From Flavobacteriales bacterium (GTDB lineage Bacteria; Bacteroidota; Bacteroidia; Flavobacteriales_F; PHOS-HE28), in assembly GCA_041747675.1 (NCBI GenBank), contig JBGTES010000002.1, positions 66,538 through 130,537 of the forward strand: a stretch of 64,000 nucleotides of DNA, written 5' to 3'. Positions 1,028 through 28,504 of this stretch are shown piece after piece; within the stretch, counting starts at the first letter, position 1, and every line of letters begins with the position of its first letter. A program made the position numbers and the translations under genes. Below the pieces are notes generated by a model, which was not told the origin of the DNA, ran no database searches, and saw nothing but the letters and a program-made list of their open reading frames with translations.

Positions 1028-1109
1028 TACGGACGGGGGGACTCGAACCCCCACACCTTGCGGTACCAGATCCTAAGTCTGGCGCGTCTACCAATTCCGC
1101 CACGTCCGT
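1028..1109 (-). tRNA. tRNA-Leu (anticodon TAG)
   Basis: Reverse complement folds as a cloverleaf. Acceptor ACGGACG/CGTCCGT, D-arm GCGGAATTGGTAGACGC, anticodon stem CCAGA/TCTGG with loop CTTAGGA (anticodon TAG), long variable arm, T-arm GGGGGTTCGAGTCCCCC. Class II leucine tRNA. Confidence 0.8.
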
Positions 1110-11400: not shown

Positions 11401-12526
11401 CAGGGGGCGGCGGGGCGGGGCCTCCATAACCCACAGCACCCAGGCAGGGCTCGTCCACATCACTCCAGTTGTAGCAGAACCCAAGACCACGCTGAACGTC
11501 GCAACCCGTGAAGTCATCATTGGAGCAGCCCACATCCGGGTCCACGAAGTGGCCGAAGTAGGTGTTCAACAAGGTCTGGGTACCGCGGTTGATGACCACG
11601 TAGTTGTAAAAGGTCATGTTGTTGATCTCATCGTTCGAGTTGAACGAAAAGCCCTGGGCCTGCACCTCCAGGCCGATGGGCTGGCCCTGGGTCTCGGTAT
11701 GCACGTTGCCCTTGTCATTGAAGATCCAGTAGATATTGTCATCGCCGAACAAAGGCACAGGATCCTCACGCTCTTTCCCCTTGCAGTCCTCCACCGTGAG
11801 GTTGAAGCCGTAGTCCGGATAGTCGCCTGCGAATGGGTCATAGAAACCGTCCACATCCCAGTCCACAAAGGGGGCCAGATAGAGGGCCTGCCCGGCATCC
11901 ACGTTGCCCATGGCGGGCCAGGTGATGAAGTCCGGTGGTATCGAATAACCGTTGGGGAAGATGACATCCAGGTCGCATTCGGGATCTTCGCTGCACAGTT
12001 TCCACTGGATATGTGCTTCGGCCTGCGTCCGCTTGGTCTGCCAGAAGCGGTCGTATTGCAGACACACGTCGAAATCCACCGAGGCATCACCGGTCACGGT
12101 AAGAGGCCCGGGCCAGAAATCATTCCGGCCCTGCGCGCGGTACAGCACCGCGGCGATCTTCAACTGGTTGTCGGGCGAGAGGCCACCCATCCAAAGTGCA
12201 CCGGCATAAATGGCATTGGGTCCGCTGAAGTCCGGGGTCTTAGGCACCTCATATCCGGAGCGGCCGGAGGCCCGGCGGGTCCATTTGTTGCCGCCGTTCT
12301 CGATCACCGCGCGCACGTTGTTGAAATTCAACTGTGTGATGCGGCTTGCCGGCGAGCAACTGGCCGCCTTGCCCAGATTGGGTGGCGGTGGTGGCGGTGC
12401 CCCCGAGGTGGCGGGCGGTGCAATGGCCCAGGCATGCATGCCCAGGGACACGGCGAGGCTCAGAGCGAAGGTTCTGGTGAGGAGCGCGCTTTGAAAGCCT
12501 TTCATGTTGTGTGGTCGTTTTAGCAT
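8423..12526 (-). CDS. Large secreted T9SS-CTD protein, candidate PorU-like (C-terminal signal peptidase family)
   Basis: 1367 aa with signal peptide. C-terminal 90 aa (NPYNAFSGYETS...ISIYNVSGTLVRKF...WDLKNANNIPIAGGVYICHV...KWFGTLRP) resembles a T9SS CTD, closest to type B. The gene sits directly upstream of the PorV-like gene. Peptidase C25 motifs could not be verified by eye. Confidence 0.45.
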   Translation of the reverse strand: MLKRPHNMKGFQSALLTRTFALSLAVSLGMHAWAIAPPATSGAPPPPPPNLGKAASCSPASRITQLNFNNVRAVIENGGNKWTRRASGRSGYEVPKTPDFSGPNAIYAGALWMGGLSPDNQLKIAAVLYRAQGRNDFWPGPLTVTGDASVDFDVCLQYDRFWQTKRTQAEAHIQWKLCSEDPECDLDVIFPNGYSIPPDFITWPAMGNVDAGQALYLAPFVDWDVDGFYDPFAGDYPDYGFNLTVEDCKGKEREDPVPLFGDDNIYWIFNDKGNVHTETQGQPIGLEVQAQGFSFNSNDEINNMTFYNYVVINRGTQTLLNTYFGHFVDPDVGCSNDDFTGCDVQRGLGFCYNWSDVDEPCLGAVGYGGPAPPPPAIGVDFFEGPFQDYDGTDNPGPDQNLSCQEYQQLGGIPYGGIGIGYGDGKADNERFGMRAFIYFNREGNPNLTDPSNATHFYNYLRSIWKNNRPQSYGGNGYSEDPNATRAFYMFPWSSDPVGWGTDCVPQADWRELEQTPAQPDRRFAQSAGPFTLEPGAYNNVTVGVVYARASQGGAVASVELLRLADDKAQALFDNCFKILDGPDAPDLDIREFDRELVIYLINPPGSNNENEMYEELDPTIPEEDVDGNPYDRFYRFQGYKLYQLKDATVSVSDIEDVSKARLVYQADVEDGVGQIINYLYDPTLDLTVPREMVAGADEGIEHAIQITEDEFAQGDRRLVNFKSYYYLAITYGYNNFEEFDPFGGTGQAFRYVAGRKAAFGAIRSYVGIPHKPDPANGGTIQNAQFGDRLQVTRYEGAGNGGLRLELTPESENAIMAGPPWRSDELLYRRNAGPIDVKIVDPLSVPEAAFEVWFQDTATPGNLDDAYWYITNLNSGVTVNSDRAIDLLYEQLLPDWGISVTIGQVNYPRDGNNNSTTRPIGTGTITFQDPSKPWFTGIPDTEGPIDQNWIRSGTQTFPDVPIYNDRTGRDDQQWYENILGGTWAPWALVGQAPFQPSNNQQVSLTQNSASFLHETPSIQLVITKDKSKWSRAVVLEQEDNTALSEGGAGKLQLRASPSIDKDGRKAGTPGANNDEATLGGEQPTGAGWFPGYAIDLETGERLNMAYGENSFWGGEIGRDMIWNPSDELLTGAGEPVFGGSHWIYVFKNDRRQSAGVANSEQRIPGYDECRFIYQTIQSTQPEPLRRVFRAVGWVGSAMVAPGRQLLETDVRIVLNVERKYTRYVDYPGSLSPIQPERNNGLPLYGFSTLGFATETGVAEVANEALAMINIVPNPYNAFSGYETSRLDNRVKFINLPQTCTISIYNVSGTLVRKFRKDNDLTYLDWDLKNANNIPIAGGVYICHVDVPNVGEKVIKWFGTLRPLDLQNF

Positions 12527-15500
12527 CAGAAATCGAAACGTACACCCAGGCGGATCTGCCGGGGCAGGCCAAAGTTGAATGGGTTCTGCACCTTGGTGGT
12601 GTAGAGGTCACGGAAAGCATTGGGGTCCACCTGGCTGGTGTCGGTGAGCAGGGCCAGGAAGCCGTCGTTGTCCGGTGAACCGGTGAAACGGTACACGTCG
12701 ATGGTATTCCGCGTGTTCAACACGTTGGTCACCAGCAGGAAGATGTTCAGGTTCGCACTCTTGGCCTTGTCCCCTTCACCACCGAAGCTCAGCGGGATGT
12801 CGCGATCGATCTGCATGTCGGTCGTGAACTGCCATGGGAGTCGGGCACCGTTGAGCGAGCCATCCAGGCGGTAGTTGCCGCTACCGGCTCCTTCGTTCAC
12901 CACCTGAAGGCTGCGGCTGTACGGTGTGCCGCTGCCCAGGATGCTCACCACGTTCACACCGGTGCGCTGTAAGATCGCTTTGTCGAACAGCATCGGGCCG
13001 TTGTAGTCCTTTCCACCGCCATAGCGGAAGTCCACGGTCATCTGGAAGCGATGACGCTGGTCGAAATCAAGTGGTGAGATGGTGCGCAGGTTCGGCTGCC
13101 CGGAGTTGATCAGGTTGATGCCCGTATTGGGGCCGGAACCTGTTCCATCGGCGAACTGCAGGGTGTAGCCCAGGCGCATCCACACGTTGCCGGTCCGGCG
13201 CAGATCGTAGCTGGTGCTGAAGCCCTTCACGGTACCGAAATCGAAGTTGTCGTAGGTGCGATAGTCACGCGGCCAGGCGTTGAGCACATTGCGGATCTGG
13301 ATCTGGTCGCGCAGTTCGCGATAGAAAGCCGAGATCTTCAAAGAAGAACTCTTGGACAACACCTGCTGGAAGCCCAATTCGTAGTCGATGGTCTTCGTGG
13401 GCCGCAGGTTCGGGTTGGCAAGGATGTCGCCGGTGTTCTCGATGTAGGAGAAGCCGATCAGGTCCAGGCGGCTCTGCAAGGCATTGGGGCGCTGGGTCAA
13501 CACGTCGTAGTGGGCGAAGAACACGGCCTCATCGCTGATCGGGAAGCTGAAGGCGATCCGGGGCATGATATTCACCGCCGGGGAGTAATCCCGGAAAGCT
13601 TCCTTGCTCAGGTTGGAACCGATCAGGCTGCCCGCCCCTCCCCCGTCGATCAGGTAGGGCTGGATGATCCCGCCTTCCTGCAGGCTCGTGCCGTCCGCGA
13701 GTTCCACACCAGTGGCGCTGTACCACACGTCGCCGTCGCGGTAGCCTTTAATGATGTTGGCATTCTCCAGATTGTCCACATACACCACGAAGTCGTCGCC
13801 GATGTTGCCGGGGCGATTGGCCAGTTGGTTGGCGATATCGCTGTTGGGCACAGCTGATCCAGCCGTCCAGGCATCCTGCCAGAGATACTTATCCTTCAGC
13901 ACGTTCTGGTTCGCATCATAGCGGTCCACCCGCACACCCACGTTGAAGATGATGTCGTCGAAGGCGAATTTGTCCATCACATAGCCGGCCATGTAGATCG
14001 GCTGGAAGGGGGCCTGCACGCGGGTGTACTGTCCATTCCCGTCCTGCTCGTCGAAGAAGCTGTTGAAGCTGGGACGGCCGGTGAGACGGTTGCCGAGGTA
14101 ATCATAACCCACATAGCTCACCAGATTGTTGCCATCGTTGATCAACTCGTCCGGTGAGAACATATCCAGCGAGAACACGCTGGGGTCCAGTGCGTCCACG
14201 TCGATGAAGTCGAGCCCATTGGGGTCCAGGCCCAGTGCTTCACGCAGACTGCGATCGAAGAAGCGCTGGTCGTCCCCCCTGTTGCGGGAATAGAAGTAGA
14301 ACGGGAAGGGGCTGCCCGGTACCTGTACGATGCTCGTGGGCAGTGTATCCTGCCATTCCTGGATGTGGAAGTTCGCCAATTGACGTGCACGGGTCCATAG
14401 ACCCACGGGGGCCAGGTCGTAGCGTCGCTGGCTCAACTGCTCGTATTCCACACCCACCGAGATCGCGTGCTGTCCGATGTCGGCACTGCCGGCCGCAGTG
14501 AAGCGTACCTGATCGTTCTGGCGGCGGCGGAATTGTGCACCATTGGGGTCGTCGATGAAGCCGATGTTGTTCCACAGATCATAGAGCGATGCAGGGCGCA
14601 TGCCATTCCACAACACGCCGCGCTGCACCGTCTCCTGGAAATTCTGGTAGAAACCAACGTAGTTCGGGTCGCTGCCGGCCTCGGCTCCGAAGAGTTCCTG
14701 GATGGGGAACTGCTCGGGCGCGAAGGCATTGAAATAGAAATTGTTCACGGCGGCCAGGTCGGGGTTCTGTGTGCCCGGGGTGAAGGTCACCAGGGTGTCG
14801 CGCAAGCCCACCTGGTCCCAGCGGCCGTTGCGGAATTCGAACTGCGGGGCCCGGTAAATGTCGAAGCGGCCTACATATCCGTAGTCGAAGAAGCGGTCAC
14901 CGTGGGTGAAGTCCTCCACATTGTTCTGGTAGCGCGAGTAATCGAGCTGCAGGGTATAAAAGGCGTTCTGGATGGTGGCCCTGCGCTCTTCCTGCTCGGT
15001 CCTGTTCTGGAAGCGCTGTGTGAACCTCACGAAGGCACGCCAGGTGCTTTCTTTAATGCGTGTGTTATTCTCCGCGTTCAGCAGTGAATTGCGGCGGTTG
15101 TACACCTGGCGGTTACCGTAATCGAGCGACCCGCCCACACTGAGATTGATGGTGGGTGTGGTGGTGATGTCGATCTTGCCCGATGCCAGATAACTCAATT
15201 CCCCGGCGTTCTGGCGGGTGGGTACCGCCTCCAGGTCATTGAAGCGCAGGTATTCGCTGCTATAGACCATGGTGAAATCATTCACCCCACTCTGGAACAG
15301 GCGCGCGGGATTCTCCAGCAGGCCGTCACGCACCTCAGGCTTCACGCGCACATCACCATCGAACAAGGGGCGACCGTCCACCACGTTGGTGTACTGGCCG
15401 GATAGGAAGAAGCCGATGAGCGGACGGGTCTTGTTCCCCACACTGTCCTTCTTGAACAGCAGCGGACCCGAGAGGCTCGCCTCGAGCTGGTTGAATCCGT

Positions 15501-16278
15501 ATTTATCCAGGCCGTACACGTTGGCTATGTCATCACCGAGTTTGAATCCTGATGTAAGGTATTCCATCCCACCGAAGAAATTCCTGCTCGGACCACGTGT
15601 GGTGATGTTGATCAAACCACCGGTCACATCACCATAGTTGGCGGGCACGCCGCCGGTGATCACCTGCACTTCCTCGATGGCGCTCTTGGGCAGGCCGATA
15701 CCCGCACCGGCGGGCACCTTCACACCATCTATATAGTAATAGGTGTTCTCCGCACGTGCTCCGCGGATGCTGATGCCACCTCCCGTACCCGCATCGCTTG
15801 TACCAGCCACGGTGGTGGCGATGGATGCTGCGGAACGGCCGGGCATCTTGGCGATGTCCTCCCGTGTGACGGTACCTCCGCTGGCACCACCATCCCTGTC
15901 GATCAGCGGTACGGTATACTGGATCACCTCGAATTCCTTGAGCTCGATGCCCTGGGTGAGCTTGAGATCAAGGAAGGTGATGCGGTTGGCGCTGACCACC
16001 ACCCCCACCTGCTTGTAGGGTTGGTAACCCACATAGGTCACCACCACATCATACGAGCCGGGGTCGATCGGCTTGATGTCATATGCACCGTTGAAGTCCG
16101 AAGCGGAACCGGTGACCTGCTGACCACCGCGCTCGAGCACGACGTTCACGAAGGGCAACGGCTCGCCGGACTTGTTATCGGTGATCTTGCCCCTGAGACT
16201 GCCGGAACCCACCTGGGCTTGCAGTGTCATCACCAAAGGGAACAGGGCGATCGTGGAGAATAGCCTTCTCACCATCAA
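12526..16278 (-). CDS. TonB-dependent-receptor-like outer-membrane protein with N-terminal carboxypeptidase-regulatory domain
   Basis: 1250 aa. Signal peptide, CarboxypepD_reg-like N-domain (GSLRGKITDNKSGEPLPFVNVVL), plug-like region (ISIRGARAENTYYYIDGVKV...EVQVITGG), long beta-barrel ending ...LGVRFDF. Its stop overlaps the next gene's start by 1 nt. Confidence 0.7.
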   Translation of the reverse strand: MMVRRLFSTIALFPLVMTLQAQVGSGSLRGKITDNKSGEPLPFVNVVLERGGQQVTGSASDFNGAYDIKPIDPGSYDVVVTYVGYQPYKQVGVVVSANRITFLDLKLTQGIELKEFEVIQYTVPLIDRDGGASGGTVTREDIAKMPGRSAASIATTVAGTSDAGTGGGISIRGARAENTYYYIDGVKVPAGAGIGLPKSAIEEVQVITGGVPANYGDVTGGLINITTRGPSRNFFGGMEYLTSGFKLGDDIANVYGLDKYGFNQLEASLSGPLLFKKDSVGNKTRPLIGFFLSGQYTNVVDGRPLFDGDVRVKPEVRDGLLENPARLFQSGVNDFTMVYSSEYLRFNDLEAVPTRQNAGELSYLASGKIDITTTPTINLSVGGSLDYGNRQVYNRRNSLLNAENNTRIKESTWRAFVRFTQRFQNRTEQEERRATIQNAFYTLQLDYSRYQNNVEDFTHGDRFFDYGYVGRFDIYRAPQFEFRNGRWDQVGLRDTLVTFTPGTQNPDLAAVNNFYFNAFAPEQFPIQELFGAEAGSDPNYVGFYQNFQETVQRGVLWNGMRPASLYDLWNNIGFIDDPNGAQFRRRQNDQVRFTAAGSADIGQHAISVGVEYEQLSQRRYDLAPVGLWTRARQLANFHIQEWQDTLPTSIVQVPGSPFPFYFYSRNRGDDQRFFDRSLREALGLDPNGLDFIDVDALDPSVFSLDMFSPDELINDGNNLVSYVGYDYLGNRLTGRPSFNSFFDEQDGNGQYTRVQAPFQPIYMAGYVMDKFAFDDIIFNVGVRVDRYDANQNVLKDKYLWQDAWTAGSAVPNSDIANQLANRPGNIGDDFVVYVDNLENANIIKGYRDGDVWYSATGVELADGTSLQEGGIIQPYLIDGGGAGSLIGSNLSKEAFRDYSPAVNIMPRIAFSFPISDEAVFFAHYDVLTQRPNALQSRLDLIGFSYIENTGDILANPNLRPTKTIDYELGFQQVLSKSSSLKISAFYRELRDQIQIRNVLNAWPRDYRTYDNFDFGTVKGFSTSYDLRRTGNVWMRLGYTLQFADGTGSGPNTGINLINSGQPNLRTISPLDFDQRHRFQMTVDFRYGGGKDYNGPMLFDKAILQRTGVNVVSILGSGTPYSRSLQVVNEGAGSGNYRLDGSLNGARLPWQFTTDMQIDRDIPLSFGGEGDKAKSANLNIFLLVTNVLNTRNTIDVYRFTGSPDNDGFLALLTDTSQVDPNAFRDLYTTKVQNPFNFGLPRQIRLGVRFDF

Positions 16279-18839: not shown

Positions 18840-19580
18840 ATGGGCACTGTGCTTCAACAGCTCGAAGCAGCGAAGGGTTCAGGCAGGAAGTTGCTGGCCG
18901 TGCTGATCGATCCCGACTTCGGGCAGGATGAGCACATGCTGGAGCGCACCGTGCAGAACGCTTGTATGGCACGTGCGGACCTGTTACTCGTGGGCGGCAG
19001 TCTGCTCACTTCCTCCTCGTTCGACCGATGTGTGTCTCTTGTGAAGCAATGGAGCAACAAGCCCGTGGTGCTCTTTCCGGGCAGCCCGGCCCAGCTCAGC
19101 CGACATGCCGATGCGGTGCTCTTCCTATCGCTCATCAGTGGCCGTAACCCGGAGTTGCTCATCGGCCACCACGTCACGGCAGCACCCACCATCAAGGCCA
19201 TCGGTATCGAGCCCATTCCCACGGGCTACCTGCTGATCGATGGCGGAAAGCCCACCACGGTGAGCTATGTAAGCCAGACCCTGCCCATCCCATACGACAA
19301 GCCCGGTATCGCAGCTGCCACGGCACTGGCCGGAGCGATGCTCGGATTGCGCACGATCTACATGGACACGGGTAGCGGCGCTCTGCGCACAGCGTCCCCT
19401 GAGATGATCGCCGCTGTGCGCGAGGCCGTTGAGTTGCCGATCATCGTGGGAGGTGGTATCCGCACGGTGGAACAGGCACGCACCCTATGCGGGGCCGGCG
19501 CCGATGTGTTGGTGGTGGGCACGGCCTTCGAGGAGGATCCCGAGCATGTGTTCGCCATGAGCGAGGCGGTCCATGGGTGA
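18840..19580 (+). CDS. Geranylgeranylglyceryl / heptaprenylglyceryl phosphate synthase family (PcrB-like TIM barrel)
   Basis: LAVLIDPD...LLLVGGS...YMDTGSGA...PIIVGGGIRT motifs are typical of the GGGPS/PcrB family. Confidence 0.75.
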   Translation: MGTVLQQLEAAKGSGRKLLAVLIDPDFGQDEHMLERTVQNACMARADLLLVGGSLLTSSSFDRCVSLVKQWSNKPVVLFPGSPAQLSRHADAVLFLSLISGRNPELLIGHHVTAAPTIKAIGIEPIPTGYLLIDGGKPTTVSYVSQTLPIPYDKPGIAAATALAGAMLGLRTIYMDTGSGALRTASPEMIAAVREAVELPIIVGGGIRTVEQARTLCGAGADVLVVGTAFEEDPEHVFAMSEAVHG

Positions 19581-21576
19581 GCTCTCCTCATCAACCTCGC
19601 GGTCCATGGGACGCGTCACGGCCATCTGCCTGCTTCTCCTGGGTCATTCACCCAGCGGATCAGCGCAGGCGGACCCACTCTGGACGGTATGGAACGACAC
19701 CACCCAGCCGGACAGTGCACGCCTGAATGCCATGCAAGTGCTGGCCTGGAGAACCGTATTCGAGCAGCCGGACAGCGGCATCACACTTGCCGGACTACAA
19801 TTGGATCTGGCCCGGCGCAGTGGTTTCCGCCACTTGGAATATGAAGCTCATACGACCCTGGCTGTGGGCAGCACATTGCGCAGCGATTATGCGATGGCGC
19901 TGGAACACCTGCGCAGTTGTCTGCGGATCGCGCGTGGGATCGGCGACCGACGTCGCGAGGCGAACGCGCACAGCAACATGAGCAATGTGTATCGCAACCT
20001 GGGCGACCTGCCCCGGGCGCTGGAGGAACTTCAAAGCAGCATGCACATCGACCTGCTGTTGGGAAACAAGGAGGGTCTCGCGGGCACGTACAGTAACATC
20101 GGCAACATCCATTCGGAACTCGGCGACCTGGACCTGGCGCTGGATAACTACCAGCGTAGTGCGGACCTCGCCGAGGAACTTGACAGCGACCGTATCCGCG
20201 CGCAGGCCCAAATGAACCTGGGCGCCGTCTGGTTGCGAAAGGAACGGCCGGACACCGCCATCGCGGAACTCCACCGGGCCCTTGCGCTCTACCGCACCAT
20301 GGGCCGGAAACTAGAAATGGGCATGGCCTTGAACAATCTGGGGCGCGCTTTGGGCCAGTTGGGGCGCATGTCCGAGGCCCACACCAGTCTTGATTCCGCA
20401 TTGGTGCTTCTCAACAGCGTGGGAAGTGGCCGGCAGATCGCGCGCAACTGGATGAACCGTGGGGAACTGCACCGGCTCGACGGAATGCATGAACGCGCGA
20501 TCGCAGCCTGCACCAGGGGATTGCGTATCGCTTTGGAAGAGGCACTTCCGCAGCAGGAGATGGAATGCAGGCAGTGCCTGATGCAGGCCCACGAGGCAAT
20601 GGGCGACTACCGCAAGGCCTTCATCGAGCAGCGCAGGTACATGGCTCTGAACGATTCCCTGGAGACATTGAACAACAGCCGCGAGGTGACCCGTCTGGAA
20701 GTGACACGCGTGTTCCAGGAGCGCATGCTCTCCGACAGTCTCGTCAATGTGCGCCAGCGATTCGAGCAGGAACTGGCCTTTCAAGAGGACCTGGGGCGGG
20801 AGAAGCTGAGGCGCAATGCCTTGCTGTTCTCCGGTATCGGCATCCTCGTTCTCAGCATCGGGCTTTGGACAAGGCTGCGCCACGTGCGCCGTTCGCGTGC
20901 GGCCATCCAACACGAGCGTGACCGAAGCGAGCACCTGCTACTGAACATCCTACCCGCGCAGGTGGCCGAGGAACTCAAATCGAAAGGCGTGGCCGAAGCC
21001 AAACAGATCGATCAGGTCACCGTGCTCTTCACCGACTTCAAGGGCTTCACGGCCATGAGCGAGCAGCTAACACCCAAGCAACTGGTAAAGGACCTGCACG
21101 AGTGCTTCAGCGCTTTCGACGCCATCTGCCAGAAATACGGCATTGAGAAGATCAAGACCATTGGAGATGCCTATATGGCGGCGGGTGGTTTGCCCGTGCC
21201 CAATACCACCCATGCCTTGGACGTGATCGGGGCCGCTTTCGAAATGCGCGACTTCATCGCTGAGGGCAAAGCGCGGAAAGTCGCGATGGGGCAGCCATAC
21301 TTCGAGATCCGCATCGGTATCCACACCGGCCCTGTCGTCGCCGGCATCGTGGGCGTGAAGAAGTTCAGCTACGACATCTGGGGCGATACCGTGAACACCG
21401 CCAGCCGCATGGAGTCCTCAGGTGAGGTGGGGCATGTGAACATCAGTGAGGCGACATACACGCTGGTCCGTGAACGGTCAGGACGCCTGTTCGACTTCAC
21501 CCCCCGCGGAAAGATCCGGGCGAAGGGGAAAGGCGAAATGGCGATGTACTTCGCGGAGCGGGCCGTGATCACGTAG
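19573..21576 (+). CDS. Membrane-anchored class III adenylate/guanylate cyclase with periplasmic TPR repeats
   Basis: Signal peptide, multiple TPR-like repeats (NMSNVYRNLGDL..., YSNIGNIHSELGDL...), TM helix, C-terminal cyclase homology domain (VTVLFTDFKGFTAMSE...IKTIGDAYMAAGGLP...GIHTGPVVAGIVG...FSYDIWGDTVNTASRMES). Likely start at ATG 19606. Confidence 0.8.
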   Translation: MGELSSSTSRSMGRVTAICLLLLGHSPSGSAQADPLWTVWNDTTQPDSARLNAMQVLAWRTVFEQPDSGITLAGLQLDLARRSGFRHLEYEAHTTLAVGSTLRSDYAMALEHLRSCLRIARGIGDRRREANAHSNMSNVYRNLGDLPRALEELQSSMHIDLLLGNKEGLAGTYSNIGNIHSELGDLDLALDNYQRSADLAEELDSDRIRAQAQMNLGAVWLRKERPDTAIAELHRALALYRTMGRKLEMGMALNNLGRALGQLGRMSEAHTSLDSALVLLNSVGSGRQIARNWMNRGELHRLDGMHERAIAACTRGLRIALEEALPQQEMECRQCLMQAHEAMGDYRKAFIEQRRYMALNDSLETLNNSREVTRLEVTRVFQERMLSDSLVNVRQRFEQELAFQEDLGREKLRRNALLFSGIGILVLSIGLWTRLRHVRRSRAAIQHERDRSEHLLLNILPAQVAEELKSKGVAEAKQIDQVTVLFTDFKGFTAMSEQLTPKQLVKDLHECFSAFDAICQKYGIEKIKTIGDAYMAAGGLPVPNTTHALDVIGAAFEMRDFIAEGKARKVAMGQPYFEIRIGIHTGPVVAGIVGVKKFSYDIWGDTVNTASRMESSGEVGHVNISEATYTLVRERSGRLFDFTPRGKIRAKGKGEMAMYFAERAVIT

Positions 21577-21585
21577 GAGTGATCC

Positions 21586-22551
21586 TCAACGCATGACCAC
21601 CACGCGGGAGGAACCCAGCACACCCACTGACGAGATGGCCTGCATCACATAGGTGCCGGCGGGAAGTCCGGATAGGTCGAGCCAGCCGACGCCATCAGTG
21701 CCTTCGGGGATCCGCGTTTCCAGGACGGCCCGTCCCATGGCATCCAGCAGGAGGAACCGATCGGCACCCCGTACATCTCCATCAAAGGTCACGCGCAACG
21801 GACCATTGGTGGGGTTGGGGGCCACAGCGAACGCAGGGGTCGTCGTTGCAGCGTCGATGCCTTGCACGATACCCGTGATGAACCCTTCACTGTGGATGCC
21901 ACCTTCCCAGGATGCGGCGATGACCACTTCCTGGCCTTCGCTAAAGAGCTGCGCCTCGCATCCACCGCCACCCGACACTTCCAGGGCGTAGCAGCTTGCT
22001 GGGTCCAGCATCACCCACTGATCCTGGTCTTCCGCGCTGGCATAGGGACCACCCTGCACCACGGGCTGCCCCAGTGCATTGATCACGCGCCAGGTGGTGG
22101 TGTACGCGACGGGGCCGGGGACCACCACTTGCACCAGAAAACTCTCGGCGGTGGAAGGTGGATCTTCCACAATAAGTGAAAGGATGTTGCCCGAAGCATC
22201 CTCATCCGGGTTTCCGTTCACGCTGATGATATGGAACTCCAGCACATCACCGGCCTGAACATCGTTCACCGCGGGAAGGGCGGGGTTGCGCGACTCGTCC
22301 GGCTCCGCTTCCACGGGGAGCTGCCAGTCGAAACTACCCACGTGTAGACCGTTCTTCCAAGTATCCACCACGCAACTGCTCATGGCGGCCGCGCCGGTGT
22401 TCTTGATCGTCACCACCGGCGTGAAGATCCCGTCGCATACATAGCGCAGGCCCTTGTAGCGCACGAAGGATGCATCGTAGGTGAACTGCGCCACGGCGTG
22501 GAATGGTGCGCTCAGAAGGAAGGACAAAAGGATGGTATTGAAGTGCTTCAT
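21586..22551 (-). CDS. Secreted protein with T9SS type-A C-terminal sorting domain (hypothetical)
   Basis: Signal peptide. C-terminal about 80 aa (VAPNPTNGPLRVTF...LLLDAMGRAVLE...LDLSGLPAGTYVMQAISSVGVLGSSRVVVMR) fits the type-A CTD. Lies 110 nt downstream of the riboswitch-controlled TBDR on the same strand. Confidence 0.65.
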   Translation of the reverse strand: MKHFNTILLSFLLSAPFHAVAQFTYDASFVRYKGLRYVCDGIFTPVVTIKNTGAAAMSSCVVDTWKNGLHVGSFDWQLPVEAEPDESRNPALPAVNDVQAGDVLEFHIISVNGNPDEDASGNILSLIVEDPPSTAESFLVQVVVPGPVAYTTTWRVINALGQPVVQGGPYASAEDQDQWVMLDPASCYALEVSGGGGCEAQLFSEGQEVVIAASWEGGIHSEGFITGIVQGIDAATTTPAFAVAPNPTNGPLRVTFDGDVRGADRFLLLDAMGRAVLETRIPEGTDGVGWLDLSGLPAGTYVMQAISSVGVLGSSRVVVMR

Positions 22552-22660
22552 GGAAAAGCGGTTGAAGTGCCAAACCTAGGCCACCTCGTTGTGGACAGCA
22601 ATAGAACCTTGGTTAGTGGCCCCTGCCACAGAGCGATGCCAAAGTGCAGGGGCAGGGCCC

Positions 22661-25063
22661 TCACCACCGCACCACCACCCCGCCCAGCACATGGAAGGGC
22701 GCCTGCGGGAAGAGGCCCACCATGTCCTGGCGTGTTCCGCCTTCGACGAAGCTGTACACCCAGCCGTTGTTCTCGTACAGCTCGCTGAAGAGGTTGCGCA
22801 ACGTGAGGTTGAGGTCGATCGATCGCATGCCCTTGAAGCGCAACAGCGATACGTTGAAGCGCAGGTCGTGTACCAGGAAGGGATCCAGCATGCGGTCGCG
22901 GCTGGCGGTGTTGTCCAGGTACTGCTCGCCCACGTACTTGGTCACGAAGGCCACATCGCCCTGGCCCTTCCCGGGCTTGTCCCAGAAGCGGAAGCCCAGC
23001 TCGCTGCCTACGACGATCGATGGCGAGAAGGCGATGTCCGTGTCCCCCACTGCGCGCTCCACCTGCCCGCCATTGTCCCAGTCATCGAGGAACTCGGTGA
23101 AGCCCTTGATGCGGTTGCGGCTGAAGGCGGCGTTGGCGCGCCACACCAGCCGGCGTGTGAGTTGCGTGGTCCAGGTGAGCTCGGCGCCGGCACGGTAGCT
23201 CTCGGACACGTTGGTGCGCAGCGGATAGCCCACGTCATTCAACTCACCTGTGAGAACCAGCTGATCGGTGTAGTCCATGTAATACAGGTTGATACCCCCG
23301 GCGAAGCGGCCGCTGCGGCGCTCGTAGCCCAGCTCGTAGTCGATCATGCGCTCGTGTGTGGGACGGCTCTGCGGGCTGCTTTCGATCAGGTCGCGGCGAT
23401 TGGGCTCGCGGTTACCCACGGCCACGCTGGCATAGACGCGGCCTCCCTCATGCGCCTTCCATTGCACACCGCCCTTCGGGTTGAAAAAGGTCCAGTCGGC
23501 CTCCTGCGTCACGTTCTCCAGGTCGTTGTTGAAGCCAAGGAAGTCGTGCGTGACGGTGCGCAGCTGTGCATCGGTGAAGAGATCCACACGATCGTTGACC
23601 ACATAGTTGAACTTGGCGAAAGCATTGCCGTCCGTCTTGGTGCCTGTGTTGTCGTAGTAGCGTTCGCGGATGTCACTTTCACCGGCCCAGCGCGCCCAGA
23701 TCACCTCGCCGAAGTGGTCGTTGCTGTAGTGGCTGTAGCTGCCGCCCAGCACCAGCTTGTGCGCGCCCAGGCGCTGCTCCAGCGTCACGTTCACGCCGTC
23801 CAGCGTGTTGTCCAGCCAGCGGCGGCGGATCAGGTCGCTCCGCGTGATGGTGGTGTCTCCGACAACGATCGGTGTGATGCCATAGTTGCTCAAGGGATCG
23901 TCGTCCCGGAACTGCTCAAAGAAGCCCGTACCCAGTACGCGGAACAGGGTGATGTTGAGGTTGGCGTGCTCACTCAGTTCCTGGTCGAAGAGCAACTGGT
24001 AATGCGTCTGCTGGTAGTCGTCCACCTGGTTGTCGTAGTTGTAAGGATTGAAGGTGCGGTTGGTGTCAAGCACTTCGCGTGGCACGCCTTCCCAGGCCTG
24101 GTAGGTGACCTCCTTGCCGCTCATGGTGAAGAAGCGCAGCGAACGTTTCTTGCCCAGCCATGCCGCCTGGAACTGGTAGCTGCGCAGGTCAGCGGTGGCG
24201 CGATCGATGTAGCCGTCGCTGCTGATGCTGCTGAGCCGTCCATCGATGGAGAAGGCACCCGCTTCGCCGCCCTGGTTCATGAGCCCCGTGCCGAAGCGCG
24301 CGTTGTAGCGCTGCGTGTTGAAGCTGCCTCCGAAGGCGCTGATCTCGCCAAAAGCTTCCTTGCGGATGGCCGCGCTGCGCATGTTGATGCTGGCCCCGAA
24401 AGCGCCCGGCCCGTTGGTGCTGGTGCCCACGCCACGCTGGATCTCGATGTCCTCCAAGCCGCTGGCCAGATCGGGCATGTTCACCCAGAACACGCTCTGG
24501 CTCTCGGGGTCGTTGATGGGCACACCGTTGAGGGTGACGTTGATCCGTGTGGCATCACTACCGCGGATGCGCAGGCCGGTGTAGCCGATGCCCGTGCCCG
24601 CATCGGTGGTGGTGACCACACCGGGTTGCTGATCGAGCAAGATGGGCAGGTCCACCCCGGTGTTGATGCGGTCCAGTTCCTCGCGCGTCACCTTGCTCAC
24701 GGCGAAGGGCGCACGGTCGCCAGCGCGCAGTGCGGTCACCTCGGCCTCGCGCATCAGCACCAGGTTCGGCAGCATACGCAGGTTGAAGCTGTTCTCGCCG
24801 GAGGCAAGCTCAAGCAACGTATCCACCGGCAGGTAGCCGATGTACGACAACCGAAGTCGCAGTGCGCCGGAACGCAAACCGCCGATGGCAAAACGGCCTT
24901 CACGGTCGGTGCTGGTGCCGAAGCGTTGTTCATCGCCCACGATGAGGCTCACGCCATCGAGCGGGGAATCGCCTTCGCCGGTGATGGTGCCCGAAAGGCG
25001 TGTCTGGGCGTGCGTGGAAAGGGCCAGCAGTGTGGCCGCGAACAGGGTGTACATGATCTTCAT
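22661..25063 (-). CDS. TonB-dependent receptor, candidate thiamin / thiamin-derivative outer-membrane transporter
   Basis: 800 aa. Signal peptide, CarboxypepD_reg-like N-domain, plug (TQRYNARFGTG...), beta-barrel ending aromatic ...VVVRW. ATG verified at 25063-25061. Immediately preceded by a TPP riboswitch. Confidence 0.85.
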   Translation of the reverse strand: MKIMYTLFAATLLALSTHAQTRLSGTITGEGDSPLDGVSLIVGDEQRFGTSTDREGRFAIGGLRSGALRLRLSYIGYLPVDTLLELASGENSFNLRMLPNLVLMREAEVTALRAGDRAPFAVSKVTREELDRINTGVDLPILLDQQPGVVTTTDAGTGIGYTGLRIRGSDATRINVTLNGVPINDPESQSVFWVNMPDLASGLEDIEIQRGVGTSTNGPGAFGASINMRSAAIRKEAFGEISAFGGSFNTQRYNARFGTGLMNQGGEAGAFSIDGRLSSISSDGYIDRATADLRSYQFQAAWLGKKRSLRFFTMSGKEVTYQAWEGVPREVLDTNRTFNPYNYDNQVDDYQQTHYQLLFDQELSEHANLNITLFRVLGTGFFEQFRDDDPLSNYGITPIVVGDTTITRSDLIRRRWLDNTLDGVNVTLEQRLGAHKLVLGGSYSHYSNDHFGEVIWARWAGESDIRERYYDNTGTKTDGNAFAKFNYVVNDRVDLFTDAQLRTVTHDFLGFNNDLENVTQEADWTFFNPKGGVQWKAHEGGRVYASVAVGNREPNRRDLIESSPQSRPTHERMIDYELGYERRSGRFAGGINLYYMDYTDQLVLTGELNDVGYPLRTNVSESYRAGAELTWTTQLTRRLVWRANAAFSRNRIKGFTEFLDDWDNGGQVERAVGDTDIAFSPSIVVGSELGFRFWDKPGKGQGDVAFVTKYVGEQYLDNTASRDRMLDPFLVHDLRFNVSLLRFKGMRSIDLNLTLRNLFSELYENNGWVYSFVEGGTRQDMVGLFPQAPFHVLGGVVVRW

Positions 25064-25104
25064 CTTCCTCCGTGTTGGTCGTCATCGCACGGAGGCGCCC
25101 ACTC

Positions 25105-25200
25105 AAGTGGGATCGGTTCTTCCTTGGCAGCATTACCTGCCCAGGTTCTGCGGGTGTGATCTCAGCCGGCCTATTGGCGGGCACCCCGGGGATGACGGGG
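25105..25200 (-). promoter_or_regulatory. TPP (thiamin pyrophosphate) riboswitch, THI-box aptamer with RBS-sequestering expression platform
   Basis: Minus-strand read: CCCCGGGGUGCCC-GCCAAUAGGCCGG-CUGAGA-UCACACCC-GCAGAACCUGGGCAGGUAAUGCUGCC-AAGGAAG. This aligns block-for-block with the E. coli thiM aptamer (GGGGUGCCC...CUGAGA...ACCC...ACCUGAUCUGGAUAAUGCCAGCGUAGGGAAG). Downstream 8-bp stem CCUCCGUG...CACGGAGG (25093-25066) occludes a GGAGG 3 nt before the AUG at 25063. Confidence 0.75.
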
Positions 25201-25271
25201 CGAAGGTAATCAGATGATGGGGCGATCAGATGATCAGATGATGGGGGCTGATCGATGCGCCTCCCACCCCA

Positions 25272-25925
25272 TCAACTCGCCGCCCCGCGCATCATCGCCT
25301 CCACCACATCCACCGCCTTCTGCACGCGCTCCTCAGGGTCGCCTTCGATGATCACGTAAGGGAAGCCGTAGGCCTTCAGCTCGCGCTCCCACACGTCGAA
25401 CAGCCGGTCGCGGTCGTGCGGGTTCTCGCGCTGCGGGTCGGGCTCCCAGGGGATGTCCGGCCGGCAGAGCAGGCGCAGGTCGTACCTCAGCACACGCACC
25501 AAGTGTTCGATCTCCGGGTGTACCTGTCCGAATTTCTCCTGGCTCCAGATCTTGATGTTGAGAATGTCGGTGTCGAAGAACATCGGCTTGCGGGGTGCGC
25601 GCCTGGCGATCGGGTCCTTGCCATGAATGGCCTGGTGGTGTTCCTCACCGAACCGGGCCGCATCGCCGAACCACTGCGCATGGCCCCGGGCCATCTCCAC
25701 CAGGTCCTCTTCGTTGTAGGGCCGGTCCAGTTCATCGAGGTACTCGCGCGTGGCGTCCCCGACGTATCCGCCCATGGTGCGGAACATCAGTTGCTCGGCG
25801 AGGGTGGTCTTGCCAGAGCTCTCGGGGCCTACGATCGCGATGCGCAAGGGCAGCCTGTTCTGTTGGGAGAGCCAAGTTATCGAGCTGGCGGAAATGAAAT
25901 GTTGGTATCGCCATCCGCAAGGCAA
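25272..25925 (-). CDS. NadR-type (AAA_28) P-loop kinase, ribosylnicotinamide-kinase-like, paralog 1
   Basis: Walker A IAIVGPESSGKTTLAEQL, Walker B-like FFDTDILN. Overall architecture of the NadR C-terminal RNK domain. Confidence 0.65.
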   Translation of the reverse strand: MPCGWRYQHFISASSITWLSQQNRLPLRIAIVGPESSGKTTLAEQLMFRTMGGYVGDATREYLDELDRPYNEEDLVEMARGHAQWFGDAARFGEEHHQAIHGKDPIARRAPRKPMFFDTDILNIKIWSQEKFGQVHPEIEHLVRVLRYDLRLLCRPDIPWEPDPQRENPHDRDRLFDVWERELKAYGFPYVIIEGDPEERVQKAVDVVEAMMRGAAS

Positions 25926-25951: not shown

Positions 25952-26548
25952 TCAGTTGGTCGCGCCCCGCAGCATCGCCTCCACGATGCTCACCGCCTTG
26001 CTCACCCGGTGCTCATGGCTGCCTTCGATGATCACGTATGGGAAGCCGTAAGCTTTCAGTTCACGCTCCCAAACGGCGAAGATCCGGTCGCGGTCAAGCG
26101 GCGGCACGCGCAGCGGGTCGGGCTTCACCGCAAAGTCCGGCCGGCAGAGGAGGCGCAGGTCGTACTTCAGCTCGCGCACCAGCCGCTCGATCTCCGGATC
26201 TACGCGGCCGAACCGCTCCAGGCTGAGGATCTTCAGGTTGAGGATGTCCGAGTCGAAGTAGGTGGGTTCCAAGGGCACGCTCTGGCCGATCACGGGGTCG
26301 TCGCCATGGATGATCTCCCAGTACTCTGCCGCCAAACCGGGGACACTCTGGAACCATTGGGCCTGGCTGTACGCCATCTCCAGGAGATCCTCCTCGGTGT
26401 GGCGCTCCTCCTCCTCGTCATCCACGTACTCGTGTGTTCCATCCGAGATGCGCCCACCACCCAGGCGCAGCATCAACTCATCGGAAATGGTGGTCTTCCC
26501 GCTGCATTCGGGTCCCACGATGGCGATGCGGACAAGTGTGATCGACAT
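25952..26548 (-). CDS. NadR-type (AAA_28) P-loop kinase, ribosylnicotinamide-kinase-like, paralog 2
   Basis: IAIVGPECSGKTTISDEL, YFDSDILN. About 50% identical to the adjacent paralog, with strongly conserved C-terminal halves (KYDLRLLCRPD...RDRIF.VWERELKAYGFPYVIIEG). ATG at 26548. Confidence 0.65.
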   Translation of the reverse strand: MSITLVRIAIVGPECSGKTTISDELMLRLGGGRISDGTHEYVDDEEEERHTEEDLLEMAYSQAQWFQSVPGLAAEYWEIIHGDDPVIGQSVPLEPTYFDSDILNLKILSLERFGRVDPEIERLVRELKYDLRLLCRPDFAVKPDPLRVPPLDRDRIFAVWERELKAYGFPYVIIEGSHEHRVSKAVSIVEAMLRGATN

Positions 26549-26653
26549 GGGTCGAGGTGATCGGTGCGGTGGCCACAAGATAACTTTCCACCACAGGCAG
26601 GCAGCGGAACGCCCATCCCGCGCGTCGATGGAATAGACCCTGACCCCGGTACC

Positions 26654-28504
26654 ATGATGCGCACCCTACTCCTCCCGATCGCCCTTTCGTTCGCATGTGG
26701 CACTCAAGCCCAACTCGGCCCTTGCACGGAAGCTCCCATCGCAGCCCACCTGTTGGAAGTGAATGCGCAGTGGTCCCAATTGGATCCGATGGCATTAGGA
26801 AGTACAGCACCTACCTCCTTCCACAATGACACTGAACGCATCGCCACGCACCTCTATATGGTCCACGACCGTCTCCTGGAACGTATGCCGGAAGGGCTCT
26901 CGGCCGATCAACAAACGAAACGGATGCGTTCGCTCGAGCGCCTGACACACTATGCCAACGATCAGCGTTTCCCGAAGAACAACATCCTGCCCTATCGCAA
27001 TCCGGTCTTCATCGATCCGAACGGAACAGCCTGTGCAGTGGGCTGGCTGATGATCGAAAGCGGGCACCACGCGCTTGCCGAGGAGATCAGCACATCGATG
27101 AACCTGGCCTATGTGCTGGAGATGCCCGGCTCCCCACAATGGCCTGCGATCTCATCTTGGGCTATGGAGCATGGCTTCAACGCGGAGGAACTGGCCTGGA
27201 TCCAGCCGGGTTATGCCCCCAACATTCCCTGGATCGCGCTGGGGGGGGGCACGAACGGACCCGTGCATGTGCTGCATAGTCTCGCCAATGGCGAGTTGCT
27301 TGTGGCGGGTGACTTCACCGAAGCGGGCGGCGTGCTGGCCCAGCGCGTGGCCATCTGGGATGGCGACAACTACATCGCCCTTGGTGGCGGGCTGCAGGGG
27401 GAAGTCGCCTGTGCCGTGGAATTCGAAGGATCCATCTACGTCGGTGGCATGTTCCTCAATGGTCCGGAGGACCTGGCCCGATGGGACGGCACATCATGGA
27501 GCTTCAGCACAGTGTTCGATGGAAAGCTGCCGCGCATCACCGCCCTGCATGTGCATGACGGCAGGCTCCATGCAGCGGGTTCCATCATGGGATTCGCTGG
27601 CGAGACCTTCCAGGTGATGCATCGGGAAAATGAACAGTGGTCCGTTCTCGGCGATCCTTTCAACGATCAGATCTTCGCCATGACCACCTTCAACAATGAA
27701 CTGGTGGCCGGTGGTGCCTTCACCCAGCCGGTCTCCGAGATCGATCCGCTCATGCTGCGTGTGGCACGCTACGATGGTTTCGGCTGGGCCCAGCTCGCCG
27801 ATGGTCTCGATGCCGTGGTGCGATGCTTCGCGCAGATGGATGGGAAACTTTACGCCGGGGGCGACCTGTATGCCGCTGAGGAGGAACCCGCTTTCGGTCT
27901 TGCACGCATCGCGCCCTTGGCGGATACCTGGGAGCACCTGCTGCCCAACCACCCCATTTACATGCCGCTGGACGAGGAATGGAGTGTGCAGCCCAAGTGG
28001 ATCGCTGCCCTGGCCGTGCAGGACGATGCCCTTTACTTCGGCGGCGAATTCCCCCTGTTCGAAGGCTTCGATGTTGTCGGCAGCCATGTCGGGCAGTTCC
28101 ATGCACCGGACCAAACCTCCGTGCTGGCTCCGATCTTCCCACCGGTCCATGCCCTGGCGATGTATGACTGGCGCCTTGTTCGCGGTGGTGAGTTCTGGTC
28201 TCCCATACCCTACGTGGCCATCACCGATATGACCATGGGCACAGGACCGTCCCCAGGGATGCCTACCACCACGATGTGCTATCCCAATCCCGCCGAAGAC
28301 CAGCTGGTGGTGGTACTGCCTGAAGGGATGCGCGACCTGCGTGCCTGGGTCGTGACCAACGTGCAAGGTCAACGGGTATCGCCGCCCACGGTAGGCACTG
28401 GTGATGGCCTGCGGATCGATGTATCCGCTTTGGCCGCCGGGATGTACCAGGTGACGATGCTCGTGGATGAACACTCCATGACCACCACGTTTCTGAAAGA
28501 ATAG
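26654..28504 (+). CDS. Secreted beta-propeller protein with T9SS type-A C-terminal sorting domain
   Basis: Signal peptide MMRTLLLPIALSFACGTQAQ. Repeated blade-like units (GDFTEAGGV..., ARWDGTSWS..., ARYDGFGWAQ...). C-terminal CTD CYPNPAEDQLVVVLPEG...LRIDVSALAAGMYQVTMLVDE...TTFLKE. Confidence 0.65.
   Translation: MMRTLLLPIALSFACGTQAQLGPCTEAPIAAHLLEVNAQWSQLDPMALGSTAPTSFHNDTERIATHLYMVHDRLLERMPEGLSADQQTKRMRSLERLTHYANDQRFPKNNILPYRNPVFIDPNGTACAVGWLMIESGHHALAEEISTSMNLAYVLEMPGSPQWPAISSWAMEHGFNAEELAWIQPGYAPNIPWIALGGGTNGPVHVLHSLANGELLVAGDFTEAGGVLAQRVAIWDGDNYIALGGGLQGEVACAVEFEGSIYVGGMFLNGPEDLARWDGTSWSFSTVFDGKLPRITALHVHDGRLHAAGSIMGFAGETFQVMHRENEQWSVLGDPFNDQIFAMTTFNNELVAGGAFTQPVSEIDPLMLRVARYDGFGWAQLADGLDAVVRCFAQMDGKLYAGGDLYAAEEEPAFGLARIAPLADTWEHLLPNHPIYMPLDEEWSVQPKWIAALAVQDDALYFGGEFPLFEGFDVVGSHVGQFHAPDQTSVLAPIFPPVHALAMYDWRLVRGGEFWSPIPYVAITDMTMGTGPSPGMPTTTMCYPNPAEDQLVVVLPEGMRDLRAWVVTNVQGQRVSPPTVGTGDGLRIDVSALAAGMYQVTMLVDEHSMTTTFLKE

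Follow-up and report, generated by a model that had tools for sequence, protein, structure and literature searches.

A 64,000-nt stretch of a Flavobacteriales bacterium genome (GenBank assembly GCA_041747675.1, contig JBGTES010000002.1, positions 66,538 to 130,537 of the forward strand), here called the window and numbered from its first nucleotide, carries on its minus strand a gene for an 800-residue TonB-dependent receptor. The gene is preceded by a leader that resembles the thiamine pyrophosphate (TPP) riboswitch and is followed by a gene for a 321-residue protein, here called the T9 protein, with a C-terminal domain (CTD) of the type IX secretion system (T9SS). The locus raises the question of whether the leader is a working riboswitch and, if so, which of the two genes it controls. 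A preliminary description of the window read the leader as a TPP riboswitch and suggested that the T9 protein could be a partner of the receptor under the same control. The explanation favoured here is that a TPP-derived translational riboswitch with its own promoter controls the receptor and that the T9 gene is a separate transcription unit, and this explanation as a whole is considered probable. A TPP riboswitch before a TonB-dependent receptor is a textbook arrangement for Bacteroidota, predicted long ago, and adds little by itself. What remains of interest is a clade-wide aptamer that is missed at the Rfam threshold and features a collapsed diphosphate pocket and a long-range substitute for P1.

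A TPP-type leader ahead of the receptor gene

The window was scanned against Rfam at gathering thresholds, and a separate RF00059 run with permissive filters was done on 501 nt of the leader. The whole-window scan reported a tRNA as its sole result and no TPP match at gathering. The RF00059 search of the leader, which the preliminary description had proposed, gives a match at 25104-25198 on the minus strand with 38.3 bits (E=5e-6), which lies under the curated gathering score of 54.3 bits. The alignment is good in P2, J3/2 and P4/P5-L5 and the optional P3a is deleted; the P1 pairs are non-canonical (cmscan), and gaps fall on both strands of the J4/5-J5/4 internal loop. The THI-box blocks described for about 25105-25200 are present on the minus strand as GGGGUGC (25181-25187), CUGAGA (25160-25165), ACCC (25152-25155) and CCUGGGCAGGUAAUGCUGCCAAGG (25122-25145). 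The leader does not match the THI-box block for block, as had been claimed, because the pyrophosphate bulge and a local P1 are missing. Read from 25208 downwards, it consists of TACCTTCG, CCCC, GUCAUC, CCC, GGGGUGCCCGCCAAUAGGCCGG, CUGAGA, UCAC, ACCC, GCAGAA and CCUGGGCAGGUAAUGCUGCCAAGG, followed by AAGAACCGAU, CCCACUUGAGUGGG, CG, CCUCCGUG, C, GAUGAC, GACCAA, CACGGAGG, AAG and AUG. The features of the leader and its gene are the following.

25201..25208, minus strand: Bacteroidota sigma-A-type -7 box TACCTTCG, called on positional conservation
25191..25196, minus strand: segment a (GUCAUC), predicted 5' end of the transcript, pairing with a' in the sequestor loop
25120..25188, minus strand: TPP-type aptamer core (P2, P3, J3/2 CUGAGA, P4/P5, L5 GUAAUG, no P3a insert), from RF00059 and the clade model R1
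25125..25142, minus strand: collapsed pyrophosphate-sensor region, with G25142 opposite A25125 and G25141 paired with C25126, from covariation in 54 leaders
25098..25111, minus strand: hairpin H (CCCAC UUGA GUGGG), which spaces the aptamer from the anti-start strand, from folds compared with shuffles
25088..25098, minus strand: strand b (GCGCCUCCGUG), pairing with b' through its 3' part to form the sequestor and complementing the invariant aptamer GGGGUGC through its 5' part, a proposed anti-sequestor
25081..25086, minus strand: segment a' (GAUGAC), loop of the sequestor hairpin and partner of the transcript 5' end
25067..25074, minus strand: strand b' (CACGGAGG), with GGAGG 3 nt before AUG, from pairing in orthologous leaders
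22661..25063, minus strand: TonB-dependent receptor, 800 aa (CarboxypepD_reg, Plug, 22-strand barrel), from Pfam, with an alternative start at 25054

The comparison set consists of 80 species-representative genome loci, given L numbers here, which were fetched with the receptor alignment. A clade covariance model, R1, was built from 53 distinct clade aptamers and searched against the window and 1.0 Mb of related DNA. R1 scores 83 bits and finds exactly one copy in each locus with upstream sequence, always ahead of the receptor, and no further copy in the window or in the related DNA. A strict THI-core regular expression matches upstream of the receptor in 56 of 74 loci; it also gave candidate second TPP cores in L081 and L103, which neither Rfam nor R1 confirmed. 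At least 70 loci from species-representative genomes and metagenomes carry the variant aptamer. Tested clade members, whose receptors are at least 53% identical, score 37.5-40.9 bits with RF00059, all under gathering. More distant orthologs with receptors 41-44% identical to that of the window carry aptamers above gathering at the same position (Balneolaceae L080, L059 and L070 and Roseivirga L067, with 73, 70.9, 67.5 and 54.7 bits), and the distant Flavobacteriales locus L065 reaches 63.8 bits. A TPP-type aptamer stands ahead of receptor orthologs in Flavobacteriales, Chitinophagales, Cytophagales, Balneolales and Bacteroidales.

The structure of the leader was examined in an alignment of 54 clade sequences from the predicted transcription start to AUG. 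A hand-drawn structure was tested against slid registers and 500 shuffles, and RNAalifold was run on the same alignment. The full structure is 90.8% paired versus 35-45% in slid registers and has 11 pairs with both sides changed, values reached by none of the 500 shuffles. P2, P3 and P4/5 are paired at 99.6%, 91% and 100%, all with compensatory changes, and RNAalifold recovered P2, P4/P5 and the sequestor hairpin near the start codon. GGGGUGC, CUGAGA and ACCC are invariant, so that the pyrimidine-sensor helix (P2, P3 and the J3/2 T-loop U39-G40-A41-G42-A43) is intact, and the P4/P5-L5 arm is likewise present, with an L5 of GUAAUG or GUCAUG in all but one of the 54 leaders; the exception, L056, has AUAAUG.

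These counts bear on the alternative that the leader is a decaying relic of a TPP riboswitch that no longer regulates, its hairpin merely setting a constitutive low level of translation. The score under gathering and the loss of both P1 and the pyrophosphate bulge would fit a relic. So would three loci in which REP-like palindromic arrays (CCGCAGGGTC...GGGACCCTGCGG and others) part the aptamer from the receptor start (L029:3083-3469, L037:4181-4500, L049:4145-4500), and these insertions may uncouple or alter regulation there. Against it, the alignment of 54 species has 46 invariant columns although their receptors are only 57-88% identical, the DNA upstream of the promoter box is not conserved, and P2, P3, P4/5, b:b' and a:a' all keep compensatory changes. 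A near-invariant aptamer between unconserved upstream DNA and diverging receptors argues for selection on the aptamer, and the relic is barely credible. Judged by this conservation, the clade leader is a functional relative of the TPP riboswitch and not a chance match. The clade aptamer departs from RF00059 in three respects, the gathering score, the pyrophosphate bulge and the local P1, and it is therefore filed as a TPP-derived variant and not as a canonical member.

A promoter is predicted directly ahead of the aptamer. In 53 of the 54 clade leaders a TAnnTT[TC]G box stands 12-15 nt before GGGGUG. The flavobacterial sigma-A -7 box, TAnnTTTG, spans -12 to -5 (PMC9723704), which places the predicted transcription start at about G25196. 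The riboswitch would then have its own promoter, located between the upstream AAA_28 gene and the aptamer. Promoter calls in this study rest on cross-species positional conservation and not on box counts in the window. A scan for sigma-70 promoters and U-tract terminators gave nothing relevant, as is expected for Bacteroidota. The stretch directly upstream of the -7 box, 25209-25246, is made of short tandem repeats of CATCTGAT (period 8 x 4.2; super-period of 24 nt); they are like the GATC-rich repeats in L010, L018 and L028, and other repeats (GTCCAT) occur in L024, L030 and L031. The tRNA gene of the window (1028-1109, minus strand, 61.3 bits) is preceded, at a distance of 17 nt, by a perfect TATCTTTG -7 box at 1126-1133 on the same strand, an internal example of the promoter type called at the leader and at the T9 gene.

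The pyrophosphate pocket, the long-range helix and the proposed switch

The canonical aptamer reads CCUG-AU-CCGG...CCGG-CG-UAGG in its P4/P5 arm, where the clade reads CCUG-[G/C]-GCAG GUAAUG CUGC-[C/G]-AAGG. In E. coli thiM numbering, A61 and U62 of J4/5 and C77 and G78 of J5/4 are replaced by one Watson-Crick pair, and G60 is kept, facing an A in a G.A pair. The collapsed pair is G:C in 29 and C:G in 25 of the 54 leaders and is never broken, and the A that follows it, equivalent to G78 and partner of the G60 equivalent, is invariant. The pyrophosphate-sensor bulge (G60; C77, G78) is therefore incomplete, though G60 is retained. G60, C77 and G78 are highly conserved residues around the diphosphate, and the sole direct base contact is made by G78 (PMC3764141; PMC7824784). 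The Chitinophagales ortholog L060 shows the same bulge collapse and L058 has G.A where the Watson-Crick pair stands; both retain a local P1.

The collapse raises the alternative that an aptamer of the same architecture senses a non-diphosphorylated relative of TPP, such as thiamine, thiamine monophosphate, hydroxymethylpyrimidine or another pyrimidine vitamer. The replacement of C77 and G78 by a covarying pair and an invariant A in all 54 clade leaders (PMC3764141, PMC7824784) speaks for such a change, as do the strictly conserved pyrimidine pocket, the occurrence of the collapse independently of P1 loss in L060 with the G.A of L058, and scores that lie about 25-30 bits below those of canonical orthologous aptamers. 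On the other side, G60 and the P4/P5-L5 geometry are kept and Mg-mediated contacts to the diphosphate could re-form around the G.A, a B1 importer would in physiological terms be expected to respond to TPP, and the orthologous leaders in other orders are canonical TPP aptamers; the proposal itself comes from sequence comparison. A changed ligand is thus judged unlikely, and TPP is the more sensible assignment. The same tentative standing is given to the view that the clade aptamer, and also that of the Chitinophagales ortholog, is a natural specificity variant with an intact pyrimidine pocket and a continuous helix in place of the pyrophosphate pocket. If it is one, a long-range pairing that closes the junction doubles as the expression platform, and the B1-transport capacity of abundant wastewater and freshwater Flavobacteriales is systematically under-annotated through the sub-threshold Rfam score. 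Surveys of B1 auxotrophy and transport that use RF00059 at gathering would miss the only recognisable B1-uptake signal in these genomes. The variant drops exactly the diphosphate-contacting nucleotides and the local P1, which makes it a clean natural test of diphosphate recognition or of ligand change.

No local P1 complement is found in the clade leaders. In its place, segment a at the transcript 5' end pairs with a', about 105 nt downstream in the sequestor loop. The two partners shift together among species (GUCUUGCA/UGCAAGGAC, GUCCG/CGGAC, GUCGC/GCGAC), and both sides change at alignment pairs 8:136, 9:135 and 10:133. Duplex energies of a with its own a' are better than those of cross-species pairings, and none of 5000 permutations reaches the observed value. 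A P1-like pairing of the 5' end with the start-codon region was also tried; 88 of 5000 permutations reached its value, and it was not adopted.

The expression platform was said to be a hairpin that buries GGAGG just before AUG as a classic Shine-Dalgarno (SD) sequestrator. The hairpin is present: CCUCCGUG (25088-25095) pairs with CACGGAGG (25067-25074), it ends 3 nt before the AUG at 25061-25063, and b:b' is 91% paired across 54 orthologous leaders with compensatory changes. Calling this an SD is questionable. Flavobacteria are largely without SD-led initiation (PMC9723704), and this scarcity together with a GGAGG only 3 nt from AUG points to occlusion of the ribosome landing site and not to classic SD sequestration. 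Between the aptamer and strand b, hairpin H is present with a stem of 4 bp or more in 45 of the 55 leaders and comes in 53 different sequences; its mean dG is -6.8 versus -3.5 for shuffled sequences. The terminator scan found no U-tract terminator in the leader, which is consistent with translational control.

Strand b also offers a second partner. Its 5' extension GCACCUC (GCGCCUC in the window) complements the invariant GGGGUGC of P2/P3, and GGGGUGC:GCACCUC is 89.7% paired versus 46-60% in slid registers. Because a lies before GGGGUGC and a' after b, the two complementarities are colinear and form one long helix. The minimum free energy (MFE) fold of the window leader contains this long-range helix and leaves GGAGG largely free (2 of 5 nt paired); when the aptamer is forced, the fold lies 2.8 kcal/mol above the MFE and GGAGG is fully paired. 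In most clade leaders the unconstrained MFE fold already holds the aptamer and the sequestor, with a mean SD pairing of 4.1 versus 4.8 of 5, and the switch decision is therefore probably kinetic. The two-state MFE test across the 54 leaders is only partly informative, and the complementarity and covariation counts are relied on instead.

A mechanism can be proposed on this basis. The mRNA would begin at about G25196 directly with the 6-nt segment a, followed by an aptamer that combines the canonical pyrimidine-sensor half (GGGGUGC, P3, CUGAGA, ACCC) and L5 with a collapsed pyrophosphate bulge and no local P1. With ligand bound, most probably TPP, P2/P3 would hold GGGGUGC and leave b (CCUCCGUG) to pair with b' (CACGGAGG), and this hairpin, ending 3 nt before AUG, would block access of the 30S subunit and turn receptor synthesis off. 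In the ligand-free state, the 5' end (a and GGGGUGC) would pair colinearly with b and a', breaking both the aptamer and the sequestor, and the long helix would free the start region and turn receptor synthesis on. Strand exchange on b is the most economical model of the pairing data. The comparative evidence supports a leader that acts on translation initiation of the TonB-dependent receptor as a TPP-type riboswitch.

The downstream T9SS protein

The second part of the question concerns the T9 gene. The features between the receptor stop codon and the end of this gene are as follows.

22619..22653, minus strand: GC-rich inverted repeat just after the receptor stop (arms 22619-22626 and 22646-22653), possibly a U-less terminator, possibly nothing
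22599..22614, minus strand: conserved motif AACCAAGGTTCTATTG of the spacer, which probably belongs to the T9 promoter as its upstream part, with a single exact copy in the window
22571..22578, minus strand: -7-type box TAGGTTTG, beginning 27 nt (last G 19 nt) before the T9 ATG
21586..22551, minus strand: T9SS cargo protein of 321 aa, starting 109 nt downstream of the receptor, with a putative signal peptide ending AQ, a CARDB-like sandwich D1 (about residues 27-127) and a sandwich D2 (about residues 139-225)
21589-21831, minus strand: type-A CTD of the T9 protein (about residues 241-319), from TIGR04183 and the modelled fold

The preliminary description was right to call this a protein with a type-A T9SS CTD on the same strand as the receptor. 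The CTD passes TIGR04183 (25.5 bits, cutoff 23) and is below the cutoff of Pfam PF18962 (19.1 vs 27), which homologs do carry, and the modelled C-terminal domain superposes on solved T9SS CTDs as a beta-sandwich. The N-terminus is hydrophobic and ends AVAQ, with a Q that is nearly invariant in the alignment. T9SS machinery genes are not found within the 64-kb window. Homologs form 33 clusters, all from metagenome-assembled genomes (MAGs) of Flavobacteriales, and an exhaustive phmmer search over 1.84 billion representatives gave 37 clusters at E<=1e-30 and 172 at E<=1e-3, the distant matches bearing the D1-D2 module inside larger proteins. P0153, a distant member of the family, has an N-terminal thioredoxin-like insertion (HWCGPCW) ahead of D1-D2.

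A confident AlphaFold model built from the homolog alignment (pLDDT, the predicted local distance difference test, 89.4) shows the putative signal peptide, two beta-sandwiches and a C-terminal sandwich. A structure prediction had been suggested as a way to reveal a thiamin-binding fold; the fold consists of generic CARDB/Ig-like (immunoglobulin-like) sandwiches and a CTD instead. Whole-chain Foldseek comparison returned generic tandem Ig and fibronectin type III proteins with a template modelling score (TM) of about 0.2, the top match being Bacteroides SGBP-B (a surface glycan-binding protein, SGBP; 6e57, E=3.4e-6), and a sequence search of D1-D2 against the PDB gave no match. No known vitamin-binding fold was found in the T9 protein by model comparison, Foldseek or the PDB sequence search. 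D1 has invariant aromatic and acidic residues (Y32, W76, E105, F106 and D116 in the alignment). The 321-aa protein is a genuine T9SS cargo without a recognisable vitamin-binding fold.

The spacer between the two genes contains signals of its own. The GC-rich hairpin at about 22619-22653 exists as an inverted repeat with perfect 8-nt arms and a 19-nt loop, placed between the receptor stop codon and the T9 promoter-like box. The attenuator or processing role suggested for it finds no support: the spacer folds no better than chance (z=-0.40 versus shuffles), the terminator scan did not report the hairpin as an intrinsic terminator and its tail is ACUAACCAAGG with no U-tract, and its sequence is unconserved, other loci having different hairpins or none. 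Most receptor-T9 spacers, in different species, contain the conserved motif AACCAAGGTTCTATTG in the form TAACnAAGGTTCTATTG, placed some 20 nt ahead of the T9 -7 box. That box is one of only 6 TAnnTTTG sites in 64 kb, and a TAnnTT[TC]G or TAnnTTGY box typically stands 26-33 nt before the T9 ATG in most relatives. Motif and box together are arranged like a flavobacterial promoter (PMC9723704). In some loci the box is one base shorter (TAnnTTGY), a form attributed to an alternative sigma factor in F. psychrophilum. We infer from this layout that the T9 gene has its own promoter, and a separate transcription unit is the most likely arrangement.

Synteny was counted in 54 informative clade loci (53 for the upstream gene) and 17 distant TPP-receptor loci (16 for the upstream gene), and a T9-centred metagenome scan was run in addition to the receptor-centred species-representative loci. 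Behind the receptor there is a T9-family gene in 31 of the 54 clade loci, against none of the 17 distant loci. The family is missing from 22 of the 54, including the closest species representative, L001, and does not show the consistent co-occurrence of a dedicated surface partner. In the metagenome scan most T9 homologs sit behind the receptor; L089, L090, L091, L093 and L095 have no receptor in 3.6-4.5 kb upstream and keep the convergent neighbour of the T9 gene, which encodes an adenylate cyclase with tetratricopeptide repeats (TPR). The slot behind the receptor holds unrelated T9SS cargo elsewhere: a different 297-aa CTD protein with a novel N-terminus (L001:6981-7874), SprB/DUF7619 adhesin-like proteins (L024:7501-9675, L030:7284-9524, L043:7352-10213) and, in a Bacteroidales locus, a GH18-CUB-CTD chitinase (L066:4856-6706). 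Non-secreted occupants are a luciferase-like monooxygenase, a DUF1800 protein and MsrA. The variety of T9SS-CTD occupants suggests a hotspot of T9SS cargo turnover. Three T9SS-CTD genes lie in the 64-kb window, and another lies divergently upstream in most loci.

In the model that follows the preliminary description, the 321-aa cargo would bind thiamine as a companion of the receptor, surface-exposed or secreted, in a role like that of SusD, HmuY or BtuG, and would be co-expressed with it under thiamine control. The T9 gene does lie on the same strand 109 nt downstream, 31 of 54 clade species and most T9-centred metagenome loci have a short or long T9-family gene behind the receptor, and tandem paralogs occur in L007, L011 and L013. 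The tandem Ig-like architecture loosely resembles SGBP-B, but with a TM of about 0.2, and the invariant D1 residues could line a site for a cationic ligand. Against this companion role, a translational riboswitch would not act on a downstream cistron, and a conserved promoter-like box with an upstream motif precedes the T9 gene itself. The 22 clade loci, L001 among them, and all 17 distant loci lack the family; homologs without a nearby receptor still keep the convergent cyclase; the slot can be filled by a chitinase, SprB-like adhesins or the 297-aa protein; and D1-D2 occurs inside many larger proteins and has no known vitamin-binding fold. A riboswitch-controlled vitamin-binding partner is accordingly improbable and the proposal is not upheld. 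A T9SS-delivered partner of this kind would have been new biology, and the comparative evidence argues against it. The counts point to a T9 gene that is kept beside the receptor by inherited local synteny in a cargo-rich region and not by a dedicated partnership.

Several observations weigh against the explanation in which a TPP-derived riboswitch controls the receptor and the T9 gene stands apart. All clade aptamers are under the Rfam gathering score, and with the C77/G78-type contacts and the local P1 missing, TPP binding is not assured. The ON state is drawn from a kinetic argument and from complementarity, and a:a' might equally serve as a long-range P1 in a pseudoknotted OFF state together with b:b'. 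Both promoters, at the leader and at the T9 gene, are predicted from sequence, and TAnnTTTG is not enriched in the window (6 observed vs 7.25 expected). Some T9SS-CTD gene follows the receptor in about 70% of clade loci, and most T9-family homologs adjoin this receptor, so that a functional link between the two keeps a small probability.

The neighbouring genes complete the picture of the locus. Two tandem genes stand upstream of the receptor unit.

25272-25925 and 25952-26578, minus strand: AAA_28 / NadR-ribosylnicotinamide-kinase-like genes, from Pfam and NCBIfam, outside the riboswitch-controlled unit

An AAA_28 gene on the same strand precedes the TPP-receptor unit in 45 of 53 informative clade loci and, Roseivirga included, in 6 of 16 distant ones, and is a more widely conserved neighbour of the receptor than the T9 protein; its product could be a vitamin kinase. 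A 646-aa T9SS cargo (DUF5122 beta-propeller and CTD) is encoded divergently at 26564-28504 on the plus strand, where most related loci have a CTD protein of 610-680 aa. No neighbour accompanies full-length T9 homologs more constantly, even without a receptor, than the TPR-adenylate/guanylate cyclase gene (19573-21576, plus strand), which converges on the T9 gene. Further along, a 1250-aa outer-membrane protein with CarboxypepD_reg and Plug domains (12526-16278, minus strand) is followed by a 1367-aa open reading frame without a Pfam match (8423-12526, minus strand).

Comparison with known systems

The receptor was correctly described as an 800-aa TonB-dependent receptor behind the leader: CarboxypepD_reg, Plug and barrel domains are found at 22661-25063 on the minus strand, and the Pfam matches (PF07715, 51.4 bits; PF00593, 71.1 bits) indicate a plug and a 22-strand barrel. 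Its homologs number in the thousands, the closest being in uncultured Flavobacteriales. The TPP-controlled outer-membrane receptors that the preliminary description mentioned for Bacteroidetes are indeed documented, in OMthi (BT2390) and omr1. OMthi has been studied genetically as a receptor controlled by a TPP riboswitch (PMC5613172), and in B. thetaiotaomicron the riboswitch abuts the start codon and control was found by experiment to be translational (bioRxiv 10.1101/867226; PMC5613172). omr1 was reported near thiamine diphosphate (TDP) riboswitches in Flavobacteriales MAGs (PMC10881298). Like these, the window receptor lies directly behind a TPP-type aptamer, in a riboswitch that abuts the start codon, and this immediate upstream position is conserved across its orthologs. 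By this analogy, we infer that the receptor imports thiamine or B1 vitamers in the manner of OMthi and omr1; the likeness is one of domains and riboswitch position. Unlike OMthi, the window locus has no pnuT-tnr3 downstream, the unit is predicted to be monocistronic and its neighbours are variable. The window receptor also differs from OMthi and omr1 in having an extra N-terminal CarboxypepD_reg domain and an AAA_28 kinase-like gene as its conserved upstream neighbour.

Like RF00059 and E. coli thiM, the window aptamer has P2/P3 with GGGGUGC, the J3/2 CUGAGA T-loop, ACCC, a P4/P5 arm with a GUAAUG L5 and an expression platform that would block translation, and its place in the genome is the one taken by bona fide RF00059 members in orthologous loci. 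It differs in scoring under gathering (38.3 vs 54.3 bits) and in having no P3a. Unlike E. coli thiM, it features one covarying pair and a G.A in place of the bulge, and the long-range a:a' in place of P1. The HMP-PP (hydroxymethylpyrimidine pyrophosphate, thiS) riboswitch, a tiny aptamer embedded in a terminator, is a precedent for ligand diversification in the thiamine pathway, and an identity of the leader with it was rejected on architecture (PMC6478431). The leader and the thiS motif are alike as thiamine-pathway riboswitches distinct from canonical TPP aptamers; the thiS motif controls biosynthesis genes, whereas the window element keeps the two-arm TPP architecture and would control a receptor.

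The T9 protein shares with SusD, the SGBPs, BtuG and HmuY its place just after a TonB-dependent receptor gene; it is an exported tandem beta-sandwich with a weak whole-chain resemblance to SGBP-B. Those proteins are lipoproteins that are co-transcribed and consistently co-occur with their transporters, whereas the T9 protein has promoter-like signals of its own, a patchy distribution and no recognisable ligand site.

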